The notes beneath the pieces are model-generated. The model searched no databases, was not told where the DNA came from, and worked only from the letters and a program-made list of their open reading frames with translations. The translations under genes were made by a program, and so were the position numbers. DNA of 64,000 bases from Nocardiopsis sp. NRRL B-16309 (GTDB taxonomy: Bacteria; Actinomycetota; Actinomycetes; Streptosporangiales; Streptosporangiaceae): the NCBI RefSeq assembly GCF_001279585.1, contig NZ_LGEC01000103.1:22925-86924 (forward strand). Direction: 5' to 3'. Below, one piece after another: positions 19,028-59,673 of this stretch. Positions within the stretch are counted from its first letter, which is position 1, and each line of letters opens with the position of its first letter.

Positions 19028-19046
19028 TTTGACGGAGGTAGCAACC

Positions 19047-22988: not shown

Positions 22989-22993
22989 TCGAT

Positions 22994-23491: not shown

Positions 23492-23578
23492 CGGAGCTCC
23501 GCGTGGACGAGGAGCGCGGGGGCGCGACCGGCCATCGTTCATCACTGTGCGTGACATGACTTGTGAAAGGAGTCACCG

Positions 23579-26194
<2,616 letters not shown>

Positions 26195-30706: not shown

Positions 30707-30728
30707 CCGGACCCGCCGCCCCGCCCAG

Positions 30729-30840: not shown

Positions 30841-30968
30841 CCGCGCGGAACCGTTGCGCGCCCGACGGCGTCTCATCTCCGGACGAGCCCGAAGCGGCAC
30901 CCCACCGCCCCAGCCCCGGCGCTCGCCCCCGCACCCGCACGTCCCATCTCCCAGAAAGCGACCCCTAC

Positions 30969-33032: not shown

Positions 33033-33043
33033 GGTAGTCCCAC

Positions 33044-43752: not shown

Positions 43753-44112
43753 GCGCTGCTTCTCTCCTCGGGGGATGTCTCGTGGTGCTCCGTCCCCAAG
43801 TGTCCCCCAGTCGGACGAATGCCCCTTACACCGGGGTGAACGGCAGCGCAAAATCGCCCCGCGACCTCGGCCCTGGCAGAGGTCTGGACCATGCAAAGAC
43901 CTCGTCGTTCCAGGTCAAGCGTTCGCAAGCTGCGCAAAGTCACCGTAAGTGACACCGGGCATGCCAAGGGTTCGCAAAACGGGTGATGCTGATGACAGCC
44001 CCCGGTGATCCAGAGACTGATTTTCCGTCGGAAATCCATCGAACGCGTGACCGAAAAGTATCCTCTGAGCTGGTGGTTCACGGTCCAACCCGATCGATAC
44101 CCTTTCGTTAAT

Positions 44113-44128
44113 TGTGATATGCGTCACA
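44113..44128. promoter_or_regulatory. CRP/FNR-type site TGTGA-tatgcg-TCACA in a 330-bp low-GC intergenic region
   Basis: Exact match to the TGTGA-N6-TCACA consensus. A second palindrome, GTCAC-cgtaa-GTGAC, lies at 43939-43953. Confidence 0.5.
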
Positions 44129-44347
44129 TCTTCAAGTCTCGACTGCGAGGGGTGAGTTACTGCTAGCATCCGGAGCGCAAAGGATAACTACGAGGTAACG
44201 ACATCGTTCGCGCCTCACCAATCTTTGCCGAGGACCCGCCTCCGGACCGCTCCGGCCGGGGGAGCCCCCTCGCACCGCGGCGTCGTGGCCGCAACAAGCG
44301 CACACGGTCAGTACCGCGGAAACCCTAGAGACCCACTGGAGACGACC

Positions 44348-44731
44348 TTGAGTCACTGGCGCCTGAACAACCCCCGGGCCACCCGGGCGAAGTCGGCTCT
44401 CGCCAGGCGAATCAAGCACAAGCCCCGCCACGCCTTCTGCGCGGAGCGTGCGATCACCGCCCTGCTGGGTGAGCTCGCCTCTCTCACACCCCGCCAGCTC
44501 TACTGGTCCGGGACCTCGGAGATGGCCGTGATGTCGGTTCGCCGTGACGTCAACGTCTGGTGCCGCGACGGACGCTTCTTCTGGAACGACCTCGTCCGCG
44601 GCGGGCAGACCGTCTCCCACCCGGCCAGCGACCCGGTCGGCGCGGCCGCCCTCCTCAACCCGTGCACGCGGGTGCCGGACCCGGTCTTCCAGCACCACCA
44701 CCGCCCCATGGCGGGTCTCACCGCGGCCTGA
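44348..44731 (+). CDS. hypothetical small protein (about 127 aa) upstream of the kinase array
   Basis: Strong GC3 bias. TTG at 44348 follows GGAGACGA. ORF-track ATG 44225 is an alternative start. Confidence 0.45.
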   Translation: MSHWRLNNPRATRAKSALARRIKHKPRHAFCAERAITALLGELASLTPRQLYWSGTSEMAVMSVRRDVNVWCRDGRFFWNDLVRGGQTVSHPASDPVGAAALLNPCTRVPDPVFQHHHRPMAGLTAA

Positions 44732-45358
44732 GCGCACGGGCCCGCGCCGGGCCCGACCTCATCCCACACTCTTCTCCGCCCGGGTCCGACCTCCTGGTCG
44801 GATCCCACGCGCCACCGCCTGCCCCGTGCGTCCCTCCGGGACGCCGTCTTCCCGCGCCAGGCCCGCGCCCGCCTGTCGCACCTCGTCCGGCCGCCCCGAC
44901 GGCCGACGCCCTCGCGGGAGCGGCATCGGCGGCGGGCACCCGCCCGCCCGGCGACACGCCGCCCTCCTCGCGCGGCACAGGGCCAGGGCGTCTTCGTACC
45001 CCCTCCCGCGCACACCACACCCCACGGGAGCCACGCCCCGGGGTGCGACACACCACATCCCCGCGTCTCGGCACGCGACACCGCACGGAGCCGACCACCA
45101 CGGGCACGGCTCCGCGCCCCGGGCCCCGGCGCGTCACACCCTCGCGCGGGCAACGGCTCCGGGCGCGGCTCCGCGCCCCCGCCTCAGACGGTTTCCGCCG
45201 CCGCGGTATCGGACCAACACCTGCAGAGCCACGGATAACATCCGAAATCGTTCCCCAAGGGCGACCTTCAGGGGTTACGGTGAATTTTCGGATGCCCCGG
45301 CACCCCCCGCTCGTCGATGGGCTCCACGTCCTCATCCATCCCTGGCCGCAGAGGACCC

Positions 45359-47533
45359 ATGCGCCCCTTGACTCCGGACGATCCCACACACCTCGGCGGG
45401 TTTCGGCTCACAGCCCACCTGGGTTCCGGTGCCCTGGGGCCGGTCTTCGCCGGTGTGCGCGAGGACGGCGTCGCGGCAGCCGTCCGGGCCGTCCGGGCGG
45501 AGGACGCGGCCGACCCCGCCTTCCACTCCCTCCTGGGCCGCGAGGCGGAGATCATCGCGCGGATCCGGAACCGCTTCGTCGTCCCCCTGCTCGGCCACGA
45601 CCTGACCGCCGCGCACCCCTGGACGGCGAGCGCGTACGTCAGCGGCCCCTCCCTGCTCGACCTCGTGCACCGGACCGGGCCCCTGCCCGCCGGCGCCCTC
45701 GCCCACATCGCGCGCGGAATGGCCGAGGCCTTGGACCACGTCCACGCCGCGGGAACGATCCACCTCGGCCTCACCCCCGCGCACGTGCTCGTCGACGCGG
45801 CCGGGCCCGTACTCGTCGACACCGGCGTCCGGCGCGCGGCCGACGGCGCCCGGATCACCTCCCCCGGGGACTCCGTGTACTGGGCGCCCGAGCACCTGCC
45901 CGGCGACCGGTCCTCCACCGCCGACGACCTCTACTCCCTGGGCGCGGTACTGGCGTTCGCCGCGACCGGGCGCGCGCCGGCCGGCACCGGGCCCGCCGCC
46001 ATCGTCGACGCGCTGCGCGCAGGGTTGGACGGGACCGCGTCCGCCCTCGCCGACGCCGTCGCCGCCTGCCTGGAGGTACGCCCCGAGCGGCGCCCCTCGG
46101 CGGCCGAACTCCTGCGGGCCCTCGGCGGCCCGCTCCCCCAGGACCCGGAGCCGTGGCTGCCGTCCCGCGCCCGCGCCCTGGTCGCACGGTTCGAGGAGGA
46201 CTCCGCCGCGGCTCTGCGGACCGCCCGTTCCGGGCAGGGGCCCGGTCGGGGACCCGCCGACGACGCCGCCGCGGGCCCGTTCGAGCCCGCCTCGCCCGGC
46301 CCCCGCCCCGAGGGCCGCCGCGCCGACCGCTCCGGGGCCACCGCCGCCTCCGGTTGCCGGGAGCATCCCGGAATCGGCGTCGGGGCCGCGAACGGCTCCG
46401 CGACCCTGTCCCCGTCCCCCGCCAGGGCTGCCGCAGCGGCCCGGCGACGGCGTGTGGCGGTGCGGATCGCGGCCGCCGCCGGAGCCGCCGCCCTGTTCGT
46501 GACCACGGGCGTGGCCCTCACCGTCACCCTGTCCTCCGAGGACGTCCTGCCCGCGGACGTCCAGGCCCCCGACTGCTCCTCCCCCGTCGGCATCGACCCG
46601 GCGCTCGTCCCCGCCGAGGAGCCCCGGACCCGCTTCAGCCCCGACGTCCCCTTCCGGCTCTCCTTCTCCCCCAACGGCTCGGTGCTGGCCGTCTCCCAGG
46701 TCGGCGGGGTCGACCTCTGGGACTGGGACCGCTCCAGCCCGCTCGCCGCGATCCCCACCGACGGCTCCGTCGTGCCGCCCAGCCCCGTCACCTTCAGTCC
46801 CAACGGCTGCGTGCTCGTCCACGGCGGGCCCGAGGGCGCCGCCGTGACCGACCTGCCCACCGGCGAGGGGACCCTCGTGGGCGGCGGGTCGGTGCACTCG
46901 GTCGCGTTCAGCCCCGACGGCGGCACCCTCGCGGTCGGGGTCGAGGGCGACCCGGACCACCGCCTCCTCCACCTGATCGACCCCGACACCGGCGAGACCG
47001 TGTCCGCGCTGGCCGGTTCGGCGCGGCTCGGCGCCCTGCGCTACTCCGCCGACGGCGGCACCCTGGTCGGCAGCGAGGACAACGCCGGGTTCGCCGTCTG
47101 GCGGCTGGACCGCCCGGGCGAGGTGTCGCTGATCGGGGACGGCTCCGGCAACGAGGCGTTCGCCGTCCTGCCCGACGGCTCCGGCGTCCTGCTCGTCCAG
47201 TCCGACCGCGTGGTCCTGGTCGACCCGGAGACGGGCGGCGTCGAGCGCGAGTTCGTTCCGCCGTCCGGGGAGGGCGTCCTGGTGGACGTGGCCTACAGCC
47301 GCTCGACCGGCCGCGTGGTGGCCGCCCGGCTGGACGCCGCGATGGGCGCCGAATCCGTGGTCGCGTGGGATCTGCGCACCGCGGAACGGATAAGCCTCGC
47401 AGGCGAGCCGCCCGCCGTGTATCCGATGGCGGTCTCGCCGTCCGGCAACCACCTGGCCGGGCTCCGCGCGGGCTCCCACGACATCGCCGTCTACGACATG
47501 GACTTCTCCCTGGTCGGCGTCCTGGCGCAGTGA
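45359..47533 (+). CDS. Ser/Thr pseudokinase fused to C-terminal WD40-like beta-propeller (paralog 1 of 4)
   Basis: Gly-loop LGSGALGPV is retained. The beta3 Lys is replaced (AAAVRAV). The catalytic loop is HLGLTPAHV (no HRD Asp) and DFG is DTG. Propeller repeats include VTFSPNGCVLV, VAFSPDGGTLAV and LRYSADGGTLVG. Confidence 0.85.
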   Translation: MRPLTPDDPTHLGGFRLTAHLGSGALGPVFAGVREDGVAAAVRAVRAEDAADPAFHSLLGREAEIIARIRNRFVVPLLGHDLTAAHPWTASAYVSGPSLLDLVHRTGPLPAGALAHIARGMAEALDHVHAAGTIHLGLTPAHVLVDAAGPVLVDTGVRRAADGARITSPGDSVYWAPEHLPGDRSSTADDLYSLGAVLAFAATGRAPAGTGPAAIVDALRAGLDGTASALADAVAACLEVRPERRPSAAELLRALGGPLPQDPEPWLPSRARALVARFEEDSAAALRTARSGQGPGRGPADDAAAGPFEPASPGPRPEGRRADRSGATAASGCREHPGIGVGAANGSATLSPSPARAAAAARRRRVAVRIAAAAGAAALFVTTGVALTVTLSSEDVLPADVQAPDCSSPVGIDPALVPAEEPRTRFSPDVPFRLSFSPNGSVLAVSQVGGVDLWDWDRSSPLAAIPTDGSVVPPSPVTFSPNGCVLVHGGPEGAAVTDLPTGEGTLVGGGSVHSVAFSPDGGTLAVGVEGDPDHRLLHLIDPDTGETVSALAGSARLGALRYSADGGTLVGSEDNAGFAVWRLDRPGEVSLIGDGSGNEAFAVLPDGSGVLLVQSDRVVLVDPETGGVEREFVPPSGEGVLVDVAYSRSTGRVVAARLDAAMGAESVVAWDLRTAERISLAGEPPAVYPMAVSPSGNHLAGLRAGSHDIAVYDMDFSLVGVLAQ

Positions 47534-47539
47534 CCGCGC

Positions 47540-47745
47540 CCGGGCCTCCAGGTCCGCCGGACCACCCACCGGTCGGGCCTCCGGGCAACCTCCAACCGAC
47601 CGGGAGCCGGGCTCGGAGGTCGGAGCGGCGGGCCTCGGGACGGCCGGGCCTCCGGGGCTCCGCTCCTCGGGACGGCCGGGCCACCCACCGGTCAGGCCCC
47701 TGATCAGCCGGGCCTCCGGGCGCCCGGGCCTCCAGGGCGGCCGAT
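47540..47745. repeat. dispersed short repeats (CCGGGCCTCC[G/A]GG x5; GCCACCCACCGGTC[G/A]GGCC x2; CGGGACGGCCGGGCC x2)
   Basis: Motif recurrences seen directly across the 320-bp gap between kinase paralogs 1 and 2. Confidence 0.7.
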
Positions 47746-47854
47746 TCGGGCCACGCTCTGGGGCCCGCGCGCGCGGACGGCTACATTTGGCGGGGGACGG
47801 ATCCCCCTCTGCCCGCCGCCCCGCGCCCCGCCGAGTAAGGAACGCGTAGCAGCC

Positions 47855-50137
47855 GTGCAGCCACTCGCCTCCGACGACCCCCAGAGCATCGGCCCGCACC
47901 GCCTCCTGGCCCGCCTGGGCGCGGGAGGCATGGGCAAGGTCTACCTCGGGCGCACCCCCGACGGGCACCTGTGCGCTCTCAAGGTGGTCAAGGAGGACCT
48001 GGCCCACGACGCCCAGTTCCGGGCCCGCTTCGCCCGCGAGATCCGTGCCGCCCGGCGCGTGCGCGGCCCCTTCACCCCCGCCGTCGTGGACGCCGGCCCC
48101 GAGGCGCCCGCGCCGTGGATGGCCACCGAGTACGTGCCCGGACCCACCCTCAAGGAGGCCGTCCGGAACGGCGGCCCCTTCCCCGAGCCGTCCCTGCTCG
48201 TCCTCACGCTCGGCCTCGCCCGCGCCCTGGCCACCATCCACGCCGCCGGCCTCATGCACCGCGACCTCAAGCCGAGCAACATCCTGCTCTCGCCGCGCGG
48301 ACCCCAGGTCATCGACTTCGGGATCGCCCGCGCCGTCGAGGGCACCGTGCTCACCCGCACGGGACAGACCTTCGGCACCCCCGCCTACAGCTCCCCGGAA
48401 CAGGTCGTCGGGCAGAACGTCTCCCCGCGCAGCGACTTGTTCTCGATGGCGGGCGCCGTGGTGTTCGCGGCCGGCGGGGAGCCCCCGTTCGGATCCGGAC
48501 CGCCCGTGCGGGTCCTCCGACGCGTGATGTCCGAACAGCCCGGCCTGGACGCGGTCCCCGAGGGCACGCTGCGCGACCTCCTCGCCCGCTGCTTCGCCAA
48601 GGACCCCGCCCACCGGCCCGAGGCCGAGGAGGTGCGTGCCGCGCTGGCCGGTCTGCCGCTGCCCTCGGCGGAGCACGGGTGGCTTCCCGCGCCCGTCACC
48701 GAACAGATCGACCGCCACGCGGGCCGCAGCCGCCGCGCGCAGGAGTCCGACCTCACGACCGCCGACATGAGCGCACCGGATGGTTTCGGCACCGGCTCGA
48801 CCCCGCTGTGGTCGGGCGCGACCGTGCCGGGCGAGTCGACCGTGCCGGGCGGCTCCCCCGTGCCCGGTGAGGACACCGGGGCAGGCCAGGACACCGTGTC
48901 GGGCGGCTCCCCTGTCCCGGGCCGGGGCACCGGACCGAGCGAGACCCGCACCGCCCCCGGCGACGGAACCGGACCGAACGGGACCTCCACCGCCCCCGGC
49001 GCGGCCCCGCCCCGCCCGTGGTGGCGCCGCCGCGCCGCCGTCGTGACCGCGGCCGCCGCGGCCGCGCTGGTCATCGCGGGCGGCGGCGCCCTCCTCCTCA
49101 CCGCCCTCCCCCTCGGCTCACCCGAGGCGCCGGGTACCGGGACCAGCCCCTCCCCCGACCCGTCCGACGGCACCGCCGCGGACGGGGAGGCCCTGTCCGT
49201 CGACCTCAGCGGATTCACCTTCGACCTGGGCTTCTCCGCCGACGGCGAGACCCTGTACGTGTACGGCACGGAGCTCTCGGCCTGGGACTGGCAGGAGGGC
49301 GTGCCGGTCGACGTCTTCGAGCCCTCCCCCCTCGGCGGCGCGATCGGACGGGACGGCCGCATCGTCGCCTCCTACGTCGACCACATCCGTGTCTGGGACG
49401 GCGACAGCGACGACGTCACCGCGCACTTCGGCTCCGCCCACGAGAACGGCGACCGCGGCTACTACCAGACATCCGCCATCACCGGCGACGGCACGAAGGT
49501 GGCCGCCACCGCGGCGGAGGACGGGCAGCCCGGCAACGACCACGTCGTCCAGGTGTGGGACGTGGAGCGCGGGGTCCCGGAGGTCGAGATCCCGCTGGAG
49601 GGCATCCTGTACGCGCTGGAGTTCTCCGCCGACGGCTCCCTGCTCGTGGGCCGCGAGGAGGCCTCCGACGGCTCGGAGCCGCTGGGCGTGTCGGTGTGGG
49701 ACGCCCGGACCGGCGAGCGGCTCCACCACTTCACCGGCGGCTACGGCCGCCAGTTCGCCCTGGCCCCCGAGGGGCGGACGATGGCCGTGAGCGTGCCGGA
49801 CGGCGACGGCGAGGGCCCCGCCGGATACGAGCTGGTCGACCTCGACACCGGCGAGGTGACCGTCCCCCTGGCGGACCTGGACGAGGACCACGCCGGTGTC
49901 ATGGGGATCCGCTTCTCCGCCGACGGCCGCCGGGTCTACGCGCTCACCGGCGGCGGCGCCACCGAATTCGGCAGCGTGTGGGACGCGCGGACGGGCGCTC
50001 TCGTCGACGAGTCCGGCCCGCCGCTCTACGAACCGCTCGCCGAGCAGGACGACGGCGGGCACATCGCCACGATGACCTCGGACGCGCGCGTCCTGATCCT
50101 CGACGCCGACTTCGGCGTCGTCACCGAACTGCACTGA
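47855..50137 (+). CDS. Ser/Thr protein kinase (catalytically intact) - TM - WD40-like beta-propeller (paralog 2)
   Basis: Catalytic motifs are intact (LGAGGMGKVY, ALKVVK, HRDLKPSNIL, DFG, SSPE). A TM segment (AAVVTAAAAAALVIAGGGALLL) precedes the propeller (LGFSADGETLYVYG; LEFSADGSLLVG; IRFSADGRRVYA). Confidence 0.9.
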   Translation: MQPLASDDPQSIGPHRLLARLGAGGMGKVYLGRTPDGHLCALKVVKEDLAHDAQFRARFAREIRAARRVRGPFTPAVVDAGPEAPAPWMATEYVPGPTLKEAVRNGGPFPEPSLLVLTLGLARALATIHAAGLMHRDLKPSNILLSPRGPQVIDFGIARAVEGTVLTRTGQTFGTPAYSSPEQVVGQNVSPRSDLFSMAGAVVFAAGGEPPFGSGPPVRVLRRVMSEQPGLDAVPEGTLRDLLARCFAKDPAHRPEAEEVRAALAGLPLPSAEHGWLPAPVTEQIDRHAGRSRRAQESDLTTADMSAPDGFGTGSTPLWSGATVPGESTVPGGSPVPGEDTGAGQDTVSGGSPVPGRGTGPSETRTAPGDGTGPNGTSTAPGAAPPRPWWRRRAAVVTAAAAAALVIAGGGALLLTALPLGSPEAPGTGTSPSPDPSDGTAADGEALSVDLSGFTFDLGFSADGETLYVYGTELSAWDWQEGVPVDVFEPSPLGGAIGRDGRIVASYVDHIRVWDGDSDDVTAHFGSAHENGDRGYYQTSAITGDGTKVAATAAEDGQPGNDHVVQVWDVERGVPEVEIPLEGILYALEFSADGSLLVGREEASDGSEPLGVSVWDARTGERLHHFTGGYGRQFALAPEGRTMAVSVPDGDGEGPAGYELVDLDTGEVTVPLADLDEDHAGVMGIRFSADGRRVYALTGGGATEFGSVWDARTGALVDESGPPLYEPLAEQDDGGHIATMTSDARVLILDADFGVVTELH

Positions 50138-50151
50138 ACGGGAGACGCCCC

Positions 50152-52290
50152 ATGCAGCCTCTCGACCCCCGCGACCCGCGCCAGGCGGGTCCGTACCGGA
50201 TCGTCGCCCTCCTCGGCGCCGGCGGCATGGGCCGCGTCTACCTCGGCCTGGACCCGGATGGGGCGCCCGCCGCCGTCAAGGTCGTGCGCGCCGAGTACGC
50301 CTACGACCCCGACTTCCGCGCGCGCTTCGCCGGCGAACTCGACCTGCTCTCGCGCGTCCACGGCGCCTACACCCCCCGCGTCCTGGGCGCGGACCCCTCC
50401 GGCCAGATGCCGTGGATGGCCACCGAGTACGTCATGGGGCCGTCCCTGCACGACCTCGTCCTGCGCACGGGGCCGCTCCCCGAGCAGGCCGTCCGGCATC
50501 TGGCGCGCGGTGTGGCCCAGGCGCTGGCGCACGTCCACTCCCTGGGCATGGTCCACCTCGACCTCAAGCCCGGCAACGTCATGGTGTCCGCGGCCGGCCC
50601 CCAGGTCATCGACTTCGGCATCGCCCGCGCCATGGAGGACGCCCAGCGCGGCGGCGAGGGCGCGCAGGACCCAGAGGACACGGACGGCACGGCGAGGGCG
50701 GTCATCGGTACGCCGGGGTACATGTCCCCCGAGCACGTGCGCCAGGAGGAGTGCGGACCGCCGAGCGACGTCTTCGCACTGGGCGGCGTCCTGGTGCACG
50801 CCCTCACCGGCGCCGGTCCGTTCGGCGACGGCCACCCCTCTGCGGTCATGTTCCGCATCACCACACAGGACCCGGTCCTGACCGGCGTTCCCGAGCCCCT
50901 GGTCGGCCTCGTCCGCGCCTGCCTGGACAAGGACCCCGGCCGCCGCCCCACCGCCGCCCAGGTCCTCCAGGCGCTCGGCGGCCCCGCCGCCCCCGCGCCC
51001 GCGGCCTCCGCCTGGCTGCCGCCGCCCGCCGCACGGGCGGTCGACGCCGCCGCCCGCGAGTACCAGGAGGCCATCGCCCAGGCGCCCGCCGCGCACGCGT
51101 CTCCCGGAAGACCCGGCGTACCCGTGACGCCGGGGGCCGCCGGAAGCAGGGGAACCCGGCGGCGCCTGCTGCTCGTCGGCGGCGCCGCCACCGCCCTGCT
51201 CCTGCTCGCCGGAGCGGGCACCTGGACGGCGGTCGCCCTGCGCGGCGGCCCGGGCGGCGGCGCCTCCGGAGCCGAGGCCTCGCCGGAGCCGGACGCCGCG
51301 TGCGACATCACCGCGGACATCGCACCCGAGCTGGCCGAGACCGCCCGGGACCGGCCGACACTGCCCTCGACCTCCGTCAACGCGCCGGAGTTCTCCGCCG
51401 ACGGCCGGGTCCTGGCCGTGGCCGCCACCGAGGCCGTGGTGCTGTGGGACTGGGCGGAGGAGACCGAGCTCGCCCGCGTCGAGGTGGACTCGGAGGAGTT
51501 CATGGTCGCCCCCGCCCTGAGCCCGGACGGCTGCCGCCTGGGCTACCCCGACACCGACGGCGCGCACGTGTACCACCTGCCGACGGGCGAGCACACGGTC
51601 TACCGCGAGGGCTCCGACATCGAGGACATGGCCTTCTCCCCCGACGGCCGGTCCGTGGCCGTGTCCGGCGCCGCCGCCGGCCAGTCCGGAGAAATCCTGC
51701 TCCTGGACCTGGAGTCGGGCGAGATCATCCGGACCTACGAGGAGGTGACCGCGGCCCAGACCATCGCGTTGACCCCGGACGGCGAGCACCTGGCCGCCAT
51801 CAACTTCGAGGGCCTGACGCGGGTCTGGGACGCGGAGAGCGGCGAGGTGCTGTTCGCGGCCGACGACGGCCACTACGGGTTCGGCGACAACCTGTTCCTG
51901 CCCACCGACGACGGGGACCTGCTGTACATGGCGGACGAGGGCCGCCGCATCGTCCACACGAACTACCTGACCGGGGAGGACGTACGCGTGCTCACCACGG
52001 AGGACGACCTGGAGGAGGGGTTCTCGGAGTTCGCGGTGAGCATGGCCGACGACCGGGTCTTCGCGCCCTACACCCCGGGCGAGTTCATCGTGACCGACGA
52101 GGACGCCTACGGCATGAAGGTGTTCGAGCTCTCCAGCGGAGAGGAGCTCACCGCCGACGGGGACGAGGGGTACATGAGCCTGGTCACCGCCCGCCCCGGC
52201 GGCGGGATGCTCGCCGGCTTCCCCTTGGACAACACCCCGCTCTGGCTGGTCGAGCCCGACCCCGTCCGGCTCACCGCGACCCTGGGCTGA
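50152..52290 (+). CDS. Ser/Thr protein kinase, non-RD type - TM - WD40-like beta-propeller (paralog 3)
   Basis: ATG lies 14 bp after paralog 2. Motifs are LGAGGMGRVY, AAVKVVR, HLDLKPGNVM (Arg of HRD lost, Asp kept), DFG and MSPE. Propeller repeats include EFSADGRVLAVAA and MAFSPDGRSVAVSG. Confidence 0.9.
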   Translation: MQPLDPRDPRQAGPYRIVALLGAGGMGRVYLGLDPDGAPAAVKVVRAEYAYDPDFRARFAGELDLLSRVHGAYTPRVLGADPSGQMPWMATEYVMGPSLHDLVLRTGPLPEQAVRHLARGVAQALAHVHSLGMVHLDLKPGNVMVSAAGPQVIDFGIARAMEDAQRGGEGAQDPEDTDGTARAVIGTPGYMSPEHVRQEECGPPSDVFALGGVLVHALTGAGPFGDGHPSAVMFRITTQDPVLTGVPEPLVGLVRACLDKDPGRRPTAAQVLQALGGPAAPAPAASAWLPPPAARAVDAAAREYQEAIAQAPAAHASPGRPGVPVTPGAAGSRGTRRRLLLVGGAATALLLLAGAGTWTAVALRGGPGGGASGAEASPEPDAACDITADIAPELAETARDRPTLPSTSVNAPEFSADGRVLAVAATEAVVLWDWAEETELARVEVDSEEFMVAPALSPDGCRLGYPDTDGAHVYHLPTGEHTVYREGSDIEDMAFSPDGRSVAVSGAAAGQSGEILLLDLESGEIIRTYEEVTAAQTIALTPDGEHLAAINFEGLTRVWDAESGEVLFAADDGHYGFGDNLFLPTDDGDLLYMADEGRRIVHTNYLTGEDVRVLTTEDDLEEGFSEFAVSMADDRVFAPYTPGEFIVTDEDAYGMKVFELSSGEELTADGDEGYMSLVTARPGGGMLAGFPLDNTPLWLVEPDPVRLTATLG

Positions 52291-52323
52291 CCCCCGCCCG
52301 CCCCACACCACCCACCGAGGCCC

Positions 52324-54408
52324 ATGTTCCCCCTGCACCCGCACGATCCGCCGTCCGTCGGCCCCTACCGCCTGCGCGCCCGGCTGGGCGAGGACGCCTG
52401 CGCGCGCGTCTACCTCGGCTCGGCCGCCGACCGGGATCCGGTGGCGGTCCGGGTCGTGCGGCCGGAGTACGCCACCGACCCCGACTTCCGCGCGGCCTTC
52501 GCGCACCTGGTCCAGGGCGCGAACGCGTCGGGCAGCGCGTACGTGTGCCGGGTGCGGGACGCCGACCTGCGCGGCGCGGTCCCCTGGGCGGCCGTGTCCC
52601 GTCCCCTCGGACCGACCCTGTCCGGCCTGATCGGTGCGCACGGCCCGCTGCCCGCGGACGCCCTGCACACGCTCGCCCTGGCCCTCGCCCAGGCGCTGGC
52701 CGACCTGCACGCCGCGCGTCGGGTGCACGGATCGCTGTGGCCGGACGGGGTCCTGGTGACGCGGGAGGGCGCTCTGCTCGCCGACGCCGGGCTGGACCGA
52801 GCGGCGGGCGGAGTCGAGGAGCGGGCGCCGCACCCGTCGTTCGCCGCGCCCGAGGGCGGCGCGTCCGCCGCCACGGACGTGTTCTCGTGGGCGGCGACCC
52901 TGTCGCAGGCGGCCGGCGGCGTCGAGGGGCCCGCCGGGCTTCCCCGCGTGCCGCTCCAGCTGCGCGGACTGGTCGACACCTGCCTCAAGCGCAGCCCCTC
53001 GCTGCGTCCCAGCGCGGCCGACCTGGTCCGCATGCTCGGCGGACCCGTCGAACCGCCGCCCTGGCCGCCCGCCGTGCCGCCCGCCGTGGAGGCGGTCGCC
53101 GCGGAGCAGCGGCGAATCCTGGAGTCGGCCGCCACCGACGGCGCTTCCACCGCTGACGGCGCGTCGGACACCGACGACGCGTCCGCCACCGAAGGGGAGG
53201 CGGGCGGGCGGCGGAGCCCGCGCGGGACGCGCGGCCTGCGGCTCCTGCCGCTGGCCGCCGGAGGGCTGGCGCTCGTGCTCGTCGCGGGGGCCGGGGCCTA
53301 CTGGGCGTCCGCCCGCTCGGGTACGGACGGTTCCGAGGAGCCCGCCGGGCCGGACGGGATGATCACCGACGCGGGCTGCCTGGAGGACCGCGGCTACCCG
53401 GTCCCGGACGGGGAGGTGGACGGGGCGGCGGCCGAGGCCTCCGCGACGGCCTTCAGCCCCGACGGGGACGTCCTCGCGGTCGCCACCGACGAGTACGGGC
53501 TCATGGTGTGGGACTGGCGCACCGGCGAGGAGGTGGCGCGCCCGGCGGCACGGACCGACGCCCTGGTGCCTCCGGTGTTCGCGCCGATCGGGTGCATGGT
53601 CGCGGCTCCGGCCCCGGTCGAGTACCCCGGCGAGGAGGTCCCGGTCCAGGTCGCGCACACCTACGACCTGCCGTCGGGGACCACGACCGAGCACCTGGGC
53701 CCGCAGCGGGGGCCGGACACGCCCGAGGGCGGCTGGTCGACCGAGCCGCGAGCGGTGCGGGGCCTGGCGTTCAGCCCGGACGGGTCGCTGCTCGCGATCG
53801 GGCTGGAGGGGCCGCTCGGGGCGATCGAGGCGGACAACGTGGGCCTGCTCGACACCACCGGCGGCGGGGAGGAGGCCTCGATCACCGGCTCCGGAGCGTA
53901 CGGCATGGCGTTCCCCGACGACGGCCGCCTCGTCAGCGCGACCTCCGACACGGTGACCGTGTGGGACGTCGGGACGGGCGAGGAGCTGCACCGGGTGCGC
54001 GGCACCACGAGGGCGTCCTTCGCGGCGATCCCCGGCACCGACGAGATCGTCTACGCCGCCGGCGACCGCCTCGTGCGGTGGGACTACGCCGAGCGGGAGC
54101 CGCTGGGCGAGTTCCCGATGCCCGAGCTCGCCGACGCCGGGCCCTCGACCGGGGTCGTCGCCGTGGACCCCGGGCGGTCCCGGCTCTTCGTCAGCGCGCG
54201 GGTGGTCGAGGACGACGAGTACGTCGACGCGAGCCGGGTGTGGGACCTGGACACGGGCGAGGAGGCCGTCGGCGGGGACGGGGAGCGGGTGCGGTTCAGG
54301 CACGTGTCCTTCCATCCCGACGGGGAGGTCCTGGCGATGGTCACCTCGGAGGGCAGGGTGGTCATCGCCGACGCGGAGACGCTGGAGGCCGGGGACCCGC
54401 TGTTCTGA
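52324..54408 (+). CDS. Ser/Thr pseudokinase - TM - WD40-like beta-propeller (paralog 4)
   Basis: The Gly-loop is degenerate (LGEDACARV), beta3 Lys is Arg (VAVRVVR), no HRD motif (RVHGSLWPDG) and DFG is DAG. Propeller repeats include TAFSPDGDVLAVAT and LAFSPDGSLLAIG. Confidence 0.85.
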   Translation: MFPLHPHDPPSVGPYRLRARLGEDACARVYLGSAADRDPVAVRVVRPEYATDPDFRAAFAHLVQGANASGSAYVCRVRDADLRGAVPWAAVSRPLGPTLSGLIGAHGPLPADALHTLALALAQALADLHAARRVHGSLWPDGVLVTREGALLADAGLDRAAGGVEERAPHPSFAAPEGGASAATDVFSWAATLSQAAGGVEGPAGLPRVPLQLRGLVDTCLKRSPSLRPSAADLVRMLGGPVEPPPWPPAVPPAVEAVAAEQRRILESAATDGASTADGASDTDDASATEGEAGGRRSPRGTRGLRLLPLAAGGLALVLVAGAGAYWASARSGTDGSEEPAGPDGMITDAGCLEDRGYPVPDGEVDGAAAEASATAFSPDGDVLAVATDEYGLMVWDWRTGEEVARPAARTDALVPPVFAPIGCMVAAPAPVEYPGEEVPVQVAHTYDLPSGTTTEHLGPQRGPDTPEGGWSTEPRAVRGLAFSPDGSLLAIGLEGPLGAIEADNVGLLDTTGGGEEASITGSGAYGMAFPDDGRLVSATSDTVTVWDVGTGEELHRVRGTTRASFAAIPGTDEIVYAAGDRLVRWDYAEREPLGEFPMPELADAGPSTGVVAVDPGRSRLFVSARVVEDDEYVDASRVWDLDTGEEAVGGDGERVRFRHVSFHPDGEVLAMVTSEGRVVIADAETLEAGDPLF

Positions 54409-54439
54409 GCACGGTTCCTCCCACGGGCGGGAGCGGCCG

Positions 54440-54725
54440 GGCACGCCCGGTGATCGGGAGTGGTGGGGAGCGGCCAGAGGACCCGGCGCGGGACCCGATC
54501 GGTGAACAGCCGGACCGGCCGGTGGCCGGTGGCCTGTGGCCTGTGGCCGGAAAGCGGCAGCGGGACCCGGTCGGCGAACGGCCGGGGCCTCCGTGCGGGG
54601 CCACGGCGGATGGTCGGGAGTGCTGGGGAACGGCCGGAGGACAGGGGTGCGGAACCCGGTCGGCGAACGGCTTCGGCCACCGGACCGCTCATGGCCGGTC
54701 GTGGCCGATCGTGGCCGGGCCCGCC
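54440..54725. repeat. repeat-rich intergenic DNA: two copies of an about 70-bp unit (about 80% identical) and (GGCCGGT/GGCCTGT)n microsatellite
   Basis: Copy A sits at 54450-54520 (gtgatcgggagtggtggggagcggccagaggacccggcgcgggacccgatcggtgaacagccgg) and copy B at 54609-54680. A partial copy lies at 54551-54590, and ggccggtggccggtggcctgtggcctgtggccgg at 54517-54550. Confidence 0.7.
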
Positions 54726-54790
54726 GGGGACGGGATCGCGGCCGATAGCGTAGGGCGACCGAGCCACGTCTGACGAGGAGACCCGGGACC

Positions 54791-55315
54791 ATGCTGAACT
54801 CCGTCACCCGACACGTCGGCGGGACGGGCGAGCCCGACCGCGCCCTCCGCAGCCCGGCGCTGGCCGCGCTCACCCGCCTGATCGAGACCGCGGGCGCGTC
54901 GGCCGGTTCCGCGTCCGCCTTCGGACCACCCGTCCGGTCCGGCGAGACCACGGTGATCCCGGTGGCGCGGGTCAGCCTCCTGGCCAGCATGGGCGGGGGG
55001 TCGAGCCGCGTCCCGCGCGGCGACGGGGCCGGCGGACTGGGCCTGGCCCGCGTCCGCCCCTCGGGGTACATCGTCCTCGACGGCTCGGGGACCTCCTTCC
55101 GCCCCATCCGCCAGCCCGCGGCGATGCTCGCCATCCCCCTCGCGGCGATCGCGGCCGTCGCGGCGACACGGATCGTCGGCGTGTCGGTGCGGGAGGCGCG
55201 CCGCCGCCGGAAGGTCGCGGCCCGCCAGGCCGCCGCCACCGCCGCCGTGACCGCCGCCGCGCCCGCTCACGCGGCCGGCTGTGCCGCGGAAGCGGTCACA
55301 GAGCCCGCGACGTAG
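54791..55315 (+). CDS. GerW/YtfJ family spore-associated protein
   Basis: Motifs GETTVIPVARVSLLASMGGG...GGLG...PSGYIVLDG match the YtfJ/GerW family pattern. Confidence 0.7.
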   Translation: MLNSVTRHVGGTGEPDRALRSPALAALTRLIETAGASAGSASAFGPPVRSGETTVIPVARVSLLASMGGGSSRVPRGDGAGGLGLARVRPSGYIVLDGSGTSFRPIRQPAAMLAIPLAAIAAVAATRIVGVSVREARRRRKVAARQAAATAAVTAAAPAHAAGCAAEAVTEPAT

Positions 55316-55988
55316 CGCTGGGCTCGGGTCCGGCCGCCGCGGGCGTTGGCCGGGCGGGGCCCCGGCGGGGACGCCGCCGGATGATCCACTCGGCCACGAC
55401 GATGTTGACCACCCAGCCCGCGCCCATGGCCAGCGCCCGGGTGGTCTCGGTGAACTCCCCGCCCAGCAGCATCAGCGGCAGGTGCGTGAACACCTGGGTC
55501 CCCGCGCCCTGACCGATGGCGTAGCCGCGGATGACCCAGGCGCGGTGCCGGGCGATGTCGCTGCGCCGCACCTCGACGTAGGCGAGGACCAGGGCCACGG
55601 CCATGGCCGAGCCGAACAGGATGCGCTGGGCGTACACGACGACGCCGTCCGGCGCGGGAACGTCGTAGGCGAACGTCATCCACAGGCCCGTCAGCGCCGA
55701 GACGATCCCGAGCGGGAGCATGATCCGGCCCGAGGCGCGGTGCCATCCGAGGTGGCGGCGGCGCAGGCCGGGCGAGAACTGGAAGGCGCCCACCACGCAG
55801 AAGACGGTCGCGCTGACGATGTGCAGCACCAGGGGAACGGGGTCGGTGAGGAACCGGGTGTTCTCGGGGGTGGGCGTCGCCCCGCCCGCGATCTCACCGA
55901 GGCGGACGGTTCCGGCGAGCGCCGGGACCGCGCTGAGCAGGATCAACGAGACCGGCACGAGCCAGTCCGCCCTGGAGGAGGACGTCAC
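55296..55988 (-). CDS. DUF2306-like integral membrane protein
   Basis: Five or six TM helices. GTG at 55988 chosen; the N-terminal Arg/Pro-rich part of the 336-aa ORF is probably noncoding. The 3' end overlaps the gerW-like gene convergently. Confidence 0.5.
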   Translation of the reverse strand: MTSSSRADWLVPVSLILLSAVPALAGTVRLGEIAGGATPTPENTRFLTDPVPLVLHIVSATVFCVVGAFQFSPGLRRRHLGWHRASGRIMLPLGIVSALTGLWMTFAYDVPAPDGVVVYAQRILFGSAMAVALVLAYVEVRRSDIARHRAWVIRGYAIGQGAGTQVFTHLPLMLLGGEFTETTRALAMGAGWVVNIVVAEWIIRRRPRRGPARPTPAAAGPEPSATSRAL

Positions 55989-56330
55989 GGAAGGGCCCCT
56001 TCGTCGCTTCGACCGACCGCGGAGCGGCCGCTGGGGCGGGGTCACCGTGTCGTGCTCCCGCCGTCGTCTCCGATCGTGGCGGTGGAGGCGGGTCCGGTTC
56101 ATCGGTCGACGGGCCCGAGCCGAATCGGCCGAAAGTACGGTACGCGGGCCGTCCCCGCGGTCGGCCGGTGGCCGAGTGCCCTCGTACCCGACGACGCGCG
56201 CCGGGCGCGGAGGCGGGTCCGGGGGCCGCTCCGCGTGCGACCGGCGGGCGCTCATCGGGGGCGGATCGGGCGCTCGCCGCCCGGCGGGGGCGGACCGGAG
56301 GCGCACGGGCGGGAGGAGCAGGGGCAGGGG

Positions 56331-56381
56331 CAGGTCCGCAGGTCCGCAGGGCCGCAGGTCCGCAGGTCCGCTCGGCGACAG
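56331..56381. repeat. 8-bp tandem repeat (CGCAGGTC)x5-6 just downstream of the response-regulator stop
   Basis: caggtccgcaggtccgcagggccgcaggtccgcaggtccgctc, seen directly. Confidence 0.8.
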
Positions 56382-56393
56382 CGCGGGGGCGGC

Positions 56394-57119
56394 TCAGCGT
56401 GCGGCGGAACCGCCGGGCCCGTTCCCGGGACCACGCCCGCTCCCACGCCCGTTCTCCCGCCCGTTCCCGGCCCGGACCCGGCGGGTCTCGTAGGCCCACA
56501 TCGCGATCTCGACGCGGTTGCGGGCACCGAGCTTGGCCATGAGGCTGGCGATGTGCGTCTTGACCGTGCTGAGCGTGATGTGGAAGTCGTCGGAGATCTC
56601 GCGGTTGGTCCGGCCCCGGGCCACGGCGGCCAGCACCTGTTCCTCGCGGTCCGTGAGCGCCTCGACCGGTTGCACGGGTGCGGCCGGCGCCGAGTCGGCG
56701 AACGCCCCGAGCAGGCGCACGGTGACGTTCGGGGCGATGAGCGCGTCGCCGTCGGCGGCGGCGCGGACGGCCTGCGCGAGCAGCGCCGGTCCCGCGTCCT
56801 TGAGCAGGAACCCCCGCGCTCCCGCCCCCAGCGCCGCGTACACGTACTCGTCGAGGTCGAAGACCGTGATGACGACGACCGCCATCGGATCCGCCACGCC
56901 GGGTCCCGCCAGCTCCCGGGTGGCCTCGATGCCGTCCAGCACGGGCATCCGGATGTCGAACAGGCACACGTCGGGCCGCAAGCGCCGCGCTAGCTCCACC
57001 GCCCGCCGCCCGTCCGCGGCCTGCCCGACGACCTCGATGCCCGGCTGGGCGTCGAGGATCATCGTCAGCCCGGTACGGACGATCTCCTGGTCGTCGGCCA
57101 CCACCACCCGGACGGTCAC
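56394..57119 (-). CDS. two-component response regulator, NarL/LuxR family
   Basis: REC domain (VVVADDQEIVRTGL...DVCLFDIRMP) plus LuxR HTH (LTDREEQVLAAVARGRTNREISDDFHITLSTVKTHIASLMAKLG). GTG at 57119 overlaps the kinase stop as GTGA. Confidence 0.9.
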   Translation of the reverse strand: MTVRVVVADDQEIVRTGLTMILDAQPGIEVVGQAADGRRAVELARRLRPDVCLFDIRMPVLDGIEATRELAGPGVADPMAVVVITVFDLDEYVYAALGAGARGFLLKDAGPALLAQAVRAAADGDALIAPNVTVRLLGAFADSAPAAPVQPVEALTDREEQVLAAVARGRTNREISDDFHITLSTVKTHIASLMAKLGARNRVEIAMWAYETRRVRAGNGRENGRGSGRGPGNGPGGSAAR

Positions 57120-58255
57120 TCCCGGGCCCCGTTCCTGGGCAGCACGGCCGTCACCGTCCAGCCCCGGCCGGGGTCCGGAGCGGCCGTGCACGTGCCGCCG
57201 AGCAGGTCGGCGCGCTCGGCCATCCCGATCAGCCCGTAGCCCGGAGCCGACGTCGGCCGCAGCGGCCCCGTGTCGCCGTCGTCGCGCACGCACAGGCGCA
57301 CCGACGTGTCGTCCGCTTCGACGCGCACGTCGATCCGGGTCGCGTCGCGGGCGTGCCGCCGGGCGTTGGTGACCGCCTCCTGGGCGAGCCGGTAGACCGC
57401 CGTCCCGAGCGACGGGGCCAGCCCGTCGACGTCGCCGGTGACCGCCACGTCCACCGCCGGACCGGGCCCCGCCGTCGCGGCGAGCGCGGCCAGGTCACCG
57501 ATCCCGGGACTGGGCTCCAGGTCCGCCGGACGGCCCCTGCGCAGCACGCGGACCATGGCGCGCATCTCGGCGAGGGCGCGCGAGGCCTCGGACTCGACCA
57601 CCGTGAGCGCCTCCACCGCCGCGCCCGGCCGCGACTCCGCCGTCGCCAGGCCCGCCTGTGCCCGGATCGCCACCGCTGACACGTGGTGGGCGACCGTGTC
57701 GTGCAGGTCGCGGGCCACGCTCTCCCGCTCCAGCATCCGGGCCTGTTCGAGTTCCCGGGCCCGGGACCCGGCCCGGTACCGCAGCGCCGTCCCCAGCGCC
57801 CCGGCCGCGCAGAGCACCGCCAGGCTCGGCGGCACGTCCGCGGCGGCGGTGTACCCCAGGGCGCTCCAGAGCACGGCCTTGCCCACGACCACCAGGGCCC
57901 CGGCCACGATCTCCCGCCCGGACGCCCAGCGGAACAGGGAGTACACCAGCACCAGCATGTACGCGATCGTGTACGTCTCGGTGGCCTCGCCGCCGGTGGC
58001 CAGCGGCACCAGGGCCGACACGGCGAACCCGGCCACGAGCACGGCCAGCGGGTGGGAGCGCCGCCACAGCAGCAGCGGCGCGAGCCCGGCGGTGACGGCC
58101 ACCCCGAGCACCCGCCAGGGCATGTCCGGCCGCAGGACCCCCTCCAGCAGGGCCGCCGCCACGAGCACCGCCACGAGCGCCCAGTCCCACCATCCGCGCG
58201 CGGGCGGACGGGGCGGGCGCGGCTCGTCCCACACCGATCGAAGGAGGTCGTGCAC
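57116..58255 (-). CDS. sensor histidine kinase (HisKA_3/HATPase_c), partner of the LuxR-type regulator
   Basis: Four N-terminal TM segments, H-box VARDLHDTVAHHVSAVAIRAQAG and ATP-lid GYGLIGMAERADLLGG. GTG start follows GAGGGGG. Confidence 0.9.
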   Translation of the reverse strand: MHDLLRSVWDEPRPPRPPARGWWDWALVAVLVAAALLEGVLRPDMPWRVLGVAVTAGLAPLLLWRRSHPLAVLVAGFAVSALVPLATGGEATETYTIAYMLVLVYSLFRWASGREIVAGALVVVGKAVLWSALGYTAAADVPPSLAVLCAAGALGTALRYRAGSRARELEQARMLERESVARDLHDTVAHHVSAVAIRAQAGLATAESRPGAAVEALTVVESEASRALAEMRAMVRVLRRGRPADLEPSPGIGDLAALAATAGPGPAVDVAVTGDVDGLAPSLGTAVYRLAQEAVTNARRHARDATRIDVRVEADDTSVRLCVRDDGDTGPLRPTSAPGYGLIGMAERADLLGGTCTAAPDPGRGWTVTAVLPRNGARE

Positions 58256-58332: not shown

Positions 58333-59673
58333 TCAGCTCGCACCGGTCATCCTGGCCACGAAGTCGAACAGGCCCATCGCCCAGGCGAAGACCGCGCACA
58401 TGGCGATGATGACGACGACCTCGGTCCAGTTGAGGACCCGCCGCAGGGACGCGCGGGGCACGTCGGCCAGGCGCACCCAGCTCAGGATCCCCGTCACCAT
58501 CCCCGCGAGCAGGGCCGCCACCGGCAGCCACGGTGACAGGAACCCGTACTCGCCGATGACCGCCACACCCGCCGCGCCCAGACCGAGCACGCCCGCCAGA
58601 CGCAGGGGGAGCACGTGCCGGATACGGTCGAAGAGGCGCGAGCGCAGCACGAGGAGAACGGCGAGCAGTCCGCACAGGATCAGGTCGGGAAGCCCCTGGG
58701 CCATGAACGCCAGCATCGCGGTCACCGCTCCGCCGCTCACCGCCACACCCATGACGATGCCCAGCAGCAACCGGTCGCTGTTGGAGTAGGTGTCCTCGAA
58801 CCTGTCCGTGGAGACCTGGCCGGAACGGCCCACCTCGTAGTCCAGCCCGGACAGCCCGCCCATCACCATCGCCACGCGCGGGAGCGCGCCGACGCACAGT
58901 GTCAGCGCGATCCCCATGGCCCGGACGCCCTGGGTCGGCTCGACGAAGAGCCCGACCAGCACCAGCACACCGGCGGCCACGGCGACCACGCCGAGACCGG
59001 CGATGTAGGCCAGCCCGGTCTCGTGCATCGCCCAGCCGATGACGGCCACCAGCAGTGCTCCCGACATCGCGAACGCGCCGACGACGAGCGGGGCCGCACT
59101 GGTCACGAGGCCGGCCGCGAGCACCGCGGTCAGCCCGCCCCACACACAGGCCGTCGCGAACAGGACGTGGGCGACCGCGGGCAGCGGCCTGCGGGCCGCC
59201 AGCAGCATGACCGCGACGGTGAACATGGTGCCCACGGCGGCCACACCGAGGTGGCCCACGGACGGGCTGAGCCACATCATCAGCCCGAGCATGAGAAGGG
59301 GGCCGATTCCGGCCACGAGAAGTCCGAAGGAGAGCGTGGTGGTGTGGTTCCACGTCCACGTCGTCTCGTCGACCCGGTCCTCGACCGCGCCACGGACGTC
59401 GTCCACGAACTCGGGGCGGCTCGGGGCGGTGCGACGGTTCAGGAGCAGGACGTCGCCGTCGTAGATCCCGGCGCTCTCCAGCGGCTCCTCCGGAGGCACG
59501 GGTCCGCCGTCGACGGTGCTGAGCGTCCAGGCCGCGGGCTCGCTGCTCGCCTCCTCCGGCGCGCAGACCTCGATGATGCGGGGCATCAGGGCCGCCACCG
59601 GCACCGTGCCCGGCAGGGCCAGATCCGCCCAGCGCTGCGGCCCTGTGACGGTGACCCGGCAGTATCCACTCAC
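58333..59673 (-). CDS. eccD: type VII secretion system integral membrane protein EccD
   Basis: N-terminal ubiquitin-like domain (CRVTVTGPQRWADLALPGTVPVAALMPRIIEVC...GIYDGDVLLL) followed by 11 TM helices. GTG start follows AAAGGAAC. Confidence 0.85.
   Translation of the reverse strand: MSGYCRVTVTGPQRWADLALPGTVPVAALMPRIIEVCAPEEASSEPAAWTLSTVDGGPVPPEEPLESAGIYDGDVLLLNRRTAPSRPEFVDDVRGAVEDRVDETTWTWNHTTTLSFGLLVAGIGPLLMLGLMMWLSPSVGHLGVAAVGTMFTVAVMLLAARRPLPAVAHVLFATACVWGGLTAVLAAGLVTSAAPLVVGAFAMSGALLVAVIGWAMHETGLAYIAGLGVVAVAAGVLVLVGLFVEPTQGVRAMGIALTLCVGALPRVAMVMGGLSGLDYEVGRSGQVSTDRFEDTYSNSDRLLLGIVMGVAVSGGAVTAMLAFMAQGLPDLILCGLLAVLLVLRSRLFDRIRHVLPLRLAGVLGLGAAGVAVIGEYGFLSPWLPVAALLAGMVTGILSWVRLADVPRASLRRVLNWTEVVVIIAMCAVFAWAMGLFDFVARMTGAS

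Follow-up and report, generated by a model that had tools for sequence, protein, structure and literature searches.

The DNA analyzed here, a stretch of 64,000 nucleotides from the actinomycete Nocardiopsis sp. NRRL B-16309 (contig NZ_LGEC01000103.1; hereafter 'the window'), contains four paralogous open reading frames (ORFs), designated G1 to G4, that lie in tandem on the + strand and fill positions 45359–54408. G1 (45359–47533; 724 aa) comprises a kinase-like domain (~45359–46144), a transmembrane (TM) helix (~46466–46531) and a propeller (~46631–47530), and is a predicted receptor pseudokinase of a lineage-restricted class that we call the G1 type. G2 (47855–50137; 760 aa, with a GTG start) consists of a kinase domain (47855–48664), a TM helix (~49034–49108) and a seven-bladed propeller (~49217–50134), and corresponds to an RD-class receptor Ser/Thr kinase of the type termed A. 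G3 (50152–52290; 712 aa) has the same plan (kinase domain, 50152–50991; TM helix, ~51166–51240; propeller, ~51364–52287) and represents type B, which in this strain is a non-RD receptor Ser/Thr kinase. G4 (52324–54408; 694 aa) is a predicted receptor pseudokinase of type Psi, with a pseudokinase domain (52324–53157), a TM helix (~53242–53319) and a seven-bladed propeller (~53401–54405).

The genes are separated by gaps of 321 bp (G1–G2; spacer 47534–47854, + strand), 14 bp (G2–G3) and 33 bp (G3–G4). A previous annotation made from the letters of this DNA (the 'sequence-only reading') had drawn attention to the tight spacing of G2, G3 and G4, which we confirmed and found to be kept in more than 30 species. 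Database proteins from this strain match G2 and G4 at 100% identity. The GC content of the window is 72–77%, GC at third codon positions (GC3) in the called frames of G1–G4 is 0.95–0.96, and a Shine-Dalgarno-like motif precedes the start of each of the four genes. Long ORFs on the opposite strand across the array were rejected as the usual artefacts of high-GC DNA. The G2 start at 47855 is backed by an N-terminal motif (M-x-P-L-x-x-D-D-P-x-x-I-G-P-H-R-L) that is kept in 34 orthologs; the deposited G2 gene model begins 17 codons downstream of it.

The four proteins share the architecture that the sequence-only reading had described (kinase domain, linker, TM helix and propeller), and its claim that they are paralogs likewise held: their kinase domains are 29–47% identical and their propellers 25–30% identical, values that point to a paralogy that is real but old. 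The Pfam Pkinase model (PF00069; curated cut-off 31.7 bits) scored above its cut-off for G1 (77.5 bits), G2 (124.1 bits) and G3 (143.9 bits), and below it for G4 (18.0 bits), though the structure model of the latter (see below) displays a kinase fold. The C-terminal third of all four proteins gave weak WD40 or beta-propeller Pfam matches; against a cut-off of 27 bits, the WD40 model PF00400 reached a total of 37.6 bits in G4 with no single stretch passing, 21.0 bits in G1 and 18.5 bits in G3, and did not match G2. No NHL match was found by Pfam in any of G1–G4.

We read the catalytic motifs from an alignment to PknB of Mycobacterium tuberculosis together with an alignment based on hidden Markov models (HMMs). 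G2 contains a GAGGMG Gly-loop, a beta3 lysine (ALK), the alphaC glutamate, HRDLKPSN and DFG, as the sequence-only reading had stated, as well as a Thr-rich activation loop. G3 is similarly equipped (GAGGMG, AVK, alphaC glutamate, DFG) and was correctly recognized in that reading as a non-RD kinase from its HLDLKPGN loop. The set of catalytic residues (Gly-loop, beta3 Lys, alphaC Glu, HRD Asp, catalytic-loop Lys and Asn, DFG Asp) is thus complete in G2 and G3, which we predict to be active kinases, and incomplete in G1 and G4. G1 retains a Gly-loop (GSGALG) and the alphaC glutamate; its beta3 lysine is replaced by arginine (AVR), and its catalytic loop (HLGLTPAH) shows HRD Asp to Gly, Lys to Thr and Asn to His changes, followed by DTG. 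G4 has GEDACA in place of the Gly-loop, arginine for the beta3 lysine (AVR), no alphaC glutamate, a catalytic loop reading HGSLWPDG (HRD Asp to Ser, catalytic Asn gone) and DAG. Its activation loop is short, and ~20 columns are gapped between alphaF and alphaH relative to PknB and G1–G3, corresponding to a deletion of the alphaG helix.

These losses largely agree with those listed in the sequence-only reading (beta3 Lys and catalytic Asp in G1; Gly-loop, beta3 Lys and HRD in G4), with one correction that applies to both proteins: the aspartate of the 'DFG' motif is kept, and the phenylalanine alone is lost (DTG in G1, DAG in G4). The alignment of the four kinase domains to PknB and to the HMM revealed no catalytic residues at shifted positions. 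By their motifs, G1 and G4 fall within the definition of a pseudokinase, namely a kinase fold in which at least one of the VAIK-Lys, HRD-Asp and DFG-Asp is lost. In source databases, many G4 orthologs are labeled either 'acyl-ACP thioesterase' (NCBI, UniRef) or 'hypothetical protein'; the former name seems to be an erroneous label for a receptor pseudokinase that has spread between records, and the present finding corrects the annotation.

Each protein contains one hydrophobic helix with a run of arginines just before it, and we therefore place the kinase domain inside the cell and the propeller outside. The ectodomains of G1, G3 and G4 share a conserved cysteine pair, consistent with a position outside the cytoplasm. 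The juxtamembrane linker is disordered and rich in Pro, Gly and Thr; in G2 and G4 it is partly encoded by 18-bp tandem repeats (48821–48946 and 53129–53192, respectively) that specify hexapeptides rich in Thr, Ser, Pro, Gly and Asp.

We modeled G4 and the ectodomain of G2 with AlphaFold2, and the blade counts given here apply to these two proteins. The G4 model (computed from 40 orthologs; pLDDT 84.9) contains a kinase fold at residues 1–278, a TM helix at residues 310–332 and strands that group into seven blades. The G2 ectodomain (pLDDT 89.9, pTM 0.87) forms 28 strands arranged as seven four-stranded blades, so that the prediction of blade number proposed in the sequence-only reading returned seven for both propellers. 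The ectodomains of G1 and G3 are of equal length to the others (330–348 aa). Foldseek comparison of the G4 kinase-like domain gave PknI of M. tuberculosis as its best PDB match (5m06; E = 4e-12, TMt 0.73, 23% identity), followed by PknA and PknB from the same organism. The G2 ectodomain matched WD40 propellers, including the designed seven-bladed WRAP-T, G-beta and WDR5.

We then surveyed the genus by scanning a single genome from each species with aligned G4 orthologs, searching the resulting loci with a kinase-domain HMM, extracting the motifs and clustering the domains into types. The scan identified 36 Nocardiopsis loci; outside Nocardiopsis it returned only single active kinases. A count of the array in related genomes, as the sequence-only reading had proposed, thus finds it across the genus. 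Three types recur: A (G2-like), B (G3-like) and Psi (G4-like), which occur in the fixed order A-B-Psi in most species; the arrays comprise between 3 and 8 genes. The four genes of our strain recur in N. aegyptia, where the 14- and 33-bp gaps are identical, and N. dassonvillei also has four array genes. Longer arrays are found in N. terrae and N. ganjiahuensis (A-B-Psi-A-A-B-Psi2) and in N. metallicus, which has eight genes (A-B-Psi-A-A-A-B-Psi2); in a group of halophiles the order is B-Psi-A. A B gene lies directly upstream of Psi in 40 of the 42 Psi genes that have an upstream neighbor, and the remaining two sit after frameshifted B genes. Median spacers are 16 bp between A and B and 43 bp between B and Psi. 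The G1 type is restricted to this strain, N. aegyptia, N. dassonvillei, N. flavescens and N. tropica.

Two irregularities in the survey should be mentioned. Split or frameshifted array members occur in three loci (L031, from N. eucommiae; L034; and L036), and could be either real pseudogenes or assembly errors. One further locus (L033; NYMS01000048.1), labeled Glycomyces fuscus TRM 49117, is 91–96% identical in DNA sequence over many kb to the loci of N. alborubida and N. synnemataformans; this record probably represents a misnamed Nocardiopsis genome or a contaminated one.

All 44 type A genes are fully intact, as are all 42 type B genes, which carry HRD in 37 cases and HLD in five; DLG or DYG takes the place of DFG in four of the 42. 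Among the 35 Psi genes, every one lacks the glycines of the Gly-loop, the HRD aspartate and the catalytic asparagine, with HGS, HGA or HAA at the HRD position; the alphaC glutamate is absent in 34, and the catalytic-loop lysine is replaced by tryptophan in 31. The DxG aspartate is kept in all 35 (as DAG, DPG or DLG), and the beta3 lysine in 22 (it is arginine in G4 of this strain). The degenerate motifs of Psi (GEDAYA, HGSLWPDG, DPG) and the deletion of the alphaG helix are themselves conserved in the genus, and invariant or near-invariant positions are scattered over the whole G4 kinase-like domain in 40 orthologs. The G1 type differs from this pattern: the beta3 lysine and the lysine and asparagine of the catalytic loop are gone in all five genes, while the HRD aspartate survives in two and the DFG aspartate in three. 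The G1-type active site thus appears to have decayed as a mosaic, species by species, a form of loss that is seen only within this type.

Selection on the array was estimated with the Nei–Gojobori method (NG86), for which absolute values of omega (the ratio of nonsynonymous to synonymous rates) are unreliable at a GC3 of ~0.95 while contrasts are robust. When this strain is compared with N. aegyptia, the kinase domains yield omega values of 0.11 (G2), 0.20 (G3), 0.25 (G4) and 0.36 (G1), and six neighboring genes yield 0.10–0.32. The corresponding ectodomain values are 0.54 (G2), 0.52 (G3), 0.64 (G4) and 0.19 (G1), and the linkers are nearly neutral (0.4–0.9). Across 52–68 pairs of closely related species, types A, B and Psi have median omega values of 0.18, 0.22 and 0.28, respectively, in their kinase domains and of 0.58, 0.59 and 0.64 in their ectodomains, and the ectodomain value exceeds the kinase-domain value in every pair. 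The pseudokinase domains are thus under purifying selection, and the propellers are the fast-evolving part of the receptors, changing at approximately three times the rate of the kinase domains. The view taken in the sequence-only reading, in which the pseudokinases act as partners and are not relics, is supported by these values (omega below 1) and by the retention of the degenerate motifs across the genus.

That reading had also described the four genes as a series showing stepwise loss of catalytic motifs, a description that we do not uphold. In a rough neighbor-joining tree all Psi types fall into one clade, and the G1 type groups with type B; on this tree, the G4 type and the G1 type are two independent pseudokinase lineages. 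The HLD motif of G3 is a sporadic Arg to Leu change within type B, present in 5 of 42 B genes. Because each type has orthologs in most species, the duplications are older than the radiation of the genus. Outside Nocardiopsis, the G4 domain is closest to active kinases (~40% identity) in which the alphaG region is present and which are ~25 residues longer than G4 across that stretch. We therefore conclude that Psi originated in this lineage from a kinase that was active.

The genes that border the array are conserved as well. Upstream, an ORF of 127 aa (44348–44731, + strand) marks the edge of the array in nearly all species; it is 73–96% identical (tblastn) in 30 loci, and is conserved more than any array gene. 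It has no Pfam, NCBIfam or PADLOC match, and could encode a regulator. A gene for an MFS transporter (− strand), also upstream of the array, is syntenic in the genus. Downstream, a small ORF (54791–55315, + strand) comes directly after the final gene of the array in many species, irrespective of how many genes the array has; its similarity to YtfJ is weak (23 bits, slightly short of the cut-off), and a hydrophobic stretch is present at its C terminus. Since these flanking genes remain constant regardless of array length, we conclude that tandem duplication made the array longer or shorter while its borders stayed in place.

Beyond this border lie components of an ESX (type VII secretion) locus: eccD (58333–59673, − strand; Pfam YukD and EccD) and eccC (59930 to the window end at 64000, + strand; three Pfam FtsK_SpoIIIE domains). 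In 25 of the 32 loci with enough flanking sequence, eccD/eccC start between 13 bp and 5.9 kb past the array, and they are also found past a seven-gene array in a further genome (L049). Proteins resembling EspA, with TPR_23 domains, follow eccC in two loci (L010 and L019). The adjacency represents synteny within one genus, and we treat it as a lead to a possible functional link, not as proof of one. Between the array and eccD, the window contains genes for a DUF2306 membrane protein, a HisKA_3 histidine kinase and a GerE-type response regulator (55296–58255, − strand). A link between the array and these genes was considered and dropped because they occupy that position only in this strain and N. 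aegyptia; the set looks like a lineage-specific insertion.

Taken together, these observations lead us to favor, with moderate confidence, a model in which the array encodes hetero-oligomeric receptor kinases with Psi as a non-catalytic partner. A, B and Psi would be co-transcribed as a set of bitopic receptors that assemble in the membrane into hetero-oligomeric complexes, and the binding of a ligand to the propellers would alter the pairing of the cytoplasmic domains. Psi, encoded directly past the B kinase, would serve as the non-catalytic partner of B and perhaps of A, whether by activating or restraining it allosterically, as a co-receptor or as a phospho-scaffold, by analogy with the dimerization-driven activation of PknB and PknD and with eukaryotic kinase/pseudokinase pairs. 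The alphaG helix is a substrate-docking element in kinases, and its loss in Psi fits a non-enzymatic role. G1 would be an extra partner that was added later, in one lineage, and that descends from a B-like gene. The output of such complexes would be Ser/Thr phosphorylation of target proteins, for which the ESX system is a candidate because the array often adjoins eccD/eccC.

Several points weigh against this model. An adjacency that is conserved in just one genus can reflect the inheritance of gene order. The DxG aspartate (35/35) and the beta3 lysine (22/35) of Psi appear to leave some room for the binding of nucleotide or metal, or even for atypical catalysis. No gene for an FHA protein, a PP2C phosphatase or an obvious substrate was found in the window (FHA, PP2C, MoxR and vWA were all absent among the window ORFs scanned, ~16–64 kb). 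The tree on which the two pseudokinase lineages rest is rough and carries no support values, and for omega it is the contrasts, not the absolute values, that can be relied upon.

The strongest alternative is that the array is a set of parallel, independent sensors, each receptor having its own ligand and acting as a homodimer, with the pseudokinases serving as ligand sinks or as decoys that form dead heterodimers and thereby provide dominant-negative tuning. Ectodomains that are just 25–30% identical probably recognize different ligands, and their fast evolution, together with a copy number that ranges from 3 to 8, would be expected of such a set; a ligand sink, however, needs neither a kinase-like domain held at an omega of ~0.28 with fixed replacements such as HGSLWPDG nor a strict position after B, and we regard this alternative as unlikely. 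We give less credence still to the idea that G1, G4 or both are not dead and operate by a non-canonical mechanism or carry out some other chemistry, as do some eukaryotic 'pseudokinases'. In its favor are the residues that persist (the invariant DxG aspartate and the frequent beta3 lysine of Psi, and the normal Gly-loop and alphaC glutamate of G1) and the mention in a published review of possible nucleotide binding by bacterial pseudokinases with a Lys to Arg change. Psi, on the other hand, loses the Gly-loop, the alphaC glutamate, the catalytic aspartate and the lysine and asparagine of the loop together in 34–35 of 35 genes and has no alphaG helix, and the losses of the G1 type differ by species, as would be expected if constraint on the active site were relaxed. 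That G1 and G4 are decaying, functionless duplicates is very improbable: the degraded catalytic motifs and the frameshifted or fragmented members in L031, L034 and L036 could be taken as signs of decay, yet the idea is contradicted by the conservation data, namely full-length, intact ORFs in ~35 species, omega values of 0.25–0.36 that lie in the range of neighboring genes, and conserved replacement motifs in domains for which AlphaFold2 gives confident folds.

A more far-reaching reading, which we offer as speculation and consider unlikely, is that the array is a diversifying repertoire of surface receptors for variable biotic signals (for example competitors, epibionts, phage or neighboring hyphae) that feeds the adjacent ESX system, with Psi as an obligatory co-receptor of B. 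It would fit, without being proven by, an ectodomain omega of ~0.6 against ~0.2 for the kinase domains, a copy number of 3 to 8 between fixed flanking genes, and the position of eccD/eccC 13 bp to 5.9 kb away in 25 of 32 loci. If it were true, the Psi–B pair would parallel, in bacteria, the immune-receptor pairs that join a kinase to a pseudokinase, and the array would be a one-polypeptide alternative to the Esr–Esx threat-sensing pathway discussed below.

A full-text literature search returned no paper on these Nocardiopsis genes. Bacterial pseudokinases were catalogued only recently (the actinobacterial families in 2025), and almost none has a known role (bioRxiv 10.1101/2025.01.12.632604; PMC12599244). 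What is new here is the conserved and expandable A-B-Psi order of receptor kinases and pseudokinases, with its fast-evolving ectodomains and frequent ESX adjacency. A pseudokinase that occupies a fixed slot behind an active paralog throughout a genus offers a tractable case in which to look for bacterial kinase/pseudokinase receptor pairs; if such pairs exist in bacteria, this case would also show what the receptors sense and whether type VII secretion is controlled by them.

We compared the array with a number of known systems. Fusions of a Ser/Thr protein kinase to WD40 repeats have been known since PkwA, a protein with seven such repeats from Thermomonospora curvata, which belongs to the same actinomycete order; the structure of the PkwA WD40 domain has been determined (5yzv; PMC6113231). 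The sequence-only reading had likened the array to PkwA, and the comparison holds at the level of the fold: both combine an N-terminal Hanks kinase with a C-terminal seven-bladed propeller of the WD40 class, and the G2 ectodomain superimposes on 5yzv with a TM-score of 0.75 at 20% identity. PkwA is one active kinase on its own, and its canonical WD repeats are nearly identical to one another. The array proteins differ in having highly divergent blades that lack regular GH/WD dipeptides, in carrying the propeller beyond a TM helix, and in being encoded by a conserved array that includes pseudokinases.

PknD of M. tuberculosis is a receptor Ser/Thr kinase with a TM helix and an extracellular six-bladed NHL propeller. 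The array proteins share this bitopic plan of kinase, TM helix and extracellular propeller, and their kinase domains resemble mycobacterial Pkn structures; they differ from PknD in having seven WD40-like blades rather than six NHL blades, PknD is encoded by a single gene with no known pseudokinase partner, and the NCBIfam model for PknD scores them at 54–68 bits against a cut-off of 839. PknI, the best structural match to the G4 kinase-like domain, is likewise a bitopic membrane protein, but one with only 23% identity, a different extracellular domain and a gene that is not known to belong to a kinase array. The Streptomyces kinase AfsK, which has a C-terminal (PQQ) propeller, gives the best NCBIfam match for all four kinase domains (NF053615). 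Those scores, 87.7–271 bits, are far under the cut-off of 1300, and the array genes are therefore not AfsK orthologs; AfsK, moreover, is not known to have a TM helix.

Published pseudokinases with similar features include the ActPs1 family, an actinobacterial family derived from the active Act1 (bioRxiv 10.1101/2025.01.12.632604; PMC12599244). The VAIK-Lys, HRD-Asp and DFG-Asp are absent in 99–100% of its members, ~60% are without the alphaG helix, and a C-terminal PQQ_2 beta-propeller is often present (same references). The G4 type also shows loss of the HRD aspartate (35/35), deletion of alphaG and a C-terminal propeller; unlike ActPs1 it keeps the DxG aspartate in 35 of 35 genes, the beta3 lysine is arginine in G4 itself and kept in 22 of 35 orthologs, and its propeller scores as WD40-like above PQQ. 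We have not filed G4 under ActPs1, since its retention of the DxG aspartate sets it apart from the family as described. The published description of ActPs1 gives no operon context.

The Esr pathway, a threat-sensing pathway linked to Esx and reported mainly from Actinomycetales and Propionibacteriales, consists of a secreted filamentous sensor, a MoxR and a vWA protein, a kinase/phosphatase pair and an FHA output protein (preprint PMC13622651). It resembles the array in having a fast-diversifying surface propeller of the WD40 class, Ser/Thr kinase signaling and esx-adjacent genes; it differs in that its MoxR, vWA, FHA and filament components were not found among the scanned window ORFs (~16–64 kb), and in that the propeller of the array is fused to the kinase. 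Many matches of the array genes to models of anti-phage kinases (PADLOC PD-T4-6 and mad6) probably reflect generic homology, as they cover the kinase domain only and no partner genes are present.

Among metagenomic sequences, four related receptors (P0050, P0242, P0082 and P0243) are single chains in which two successive kinase domains precede a TM helix and a PQQ propeller. The second kinase domain is degenerate in two of the four (P0082 and P0243: HLGLKPSN/GFG; Lys to Thr). Such fusions of a kinase to a degenerate kinase make a kinase–pseudokinase partnership in the array more plausible. In one locus (L050), the gene for a two-kinase receptor adjoins a gene for a toxin with a TNT domain and an ORF of 2059 aa.

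The 321-bp spacer between G1 and G2 contains five copies of a ~10-nucleotide CGGGCCTCC-like motif. This motif is essentially confined to the spacer; the matching spacers of the other species with a G1-type gene are shorter (104–199 bp) and contain no copies. The sequence-only reading had taken flanking repeats as a sign of local duplication. The repeats do not flank the array, are limited to a single gap in this strain and have nothing in common with the genes, and we have ruled them out as a duplication scar. The spacer presumably contains the promoter of G2-G3-G4; it folds no better than shuffled sequences (z −1.7), a scan of positions 44000–55400 for consensus promoters and terminators gave no match, as expected for an actinomycete with 75% GC, and an Rfam scan of the whole window was also negative.

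Elsewhere in the window, dnaK-grpE-dnaJ and clpB are located at 18984–26194 (+ strand), which places the array in a core chromosomal region and not in an obvious mobile island. Between them and the array, positions 30669–38068 (+ strand) encode an SPFH/Band_7 protein (~787 aa) followed by a protein of 1676 aa with DUF3686 ('ATPase involved in DNA repair'), DUF7902 and AAA_5 domains; PADLOC gave no match for this pair. In N. aegyptia (L001, 1–4587), a gene of the AfsA family (butyrolactone synthase-like) and genes resembling those of fatty acid synthases lie just upstream of the MFS transporter gene. At the position of the AfsA-family gene, our window instead contains genes for an acyl-CoA dehydrogenase and a SnoaL-like protein.

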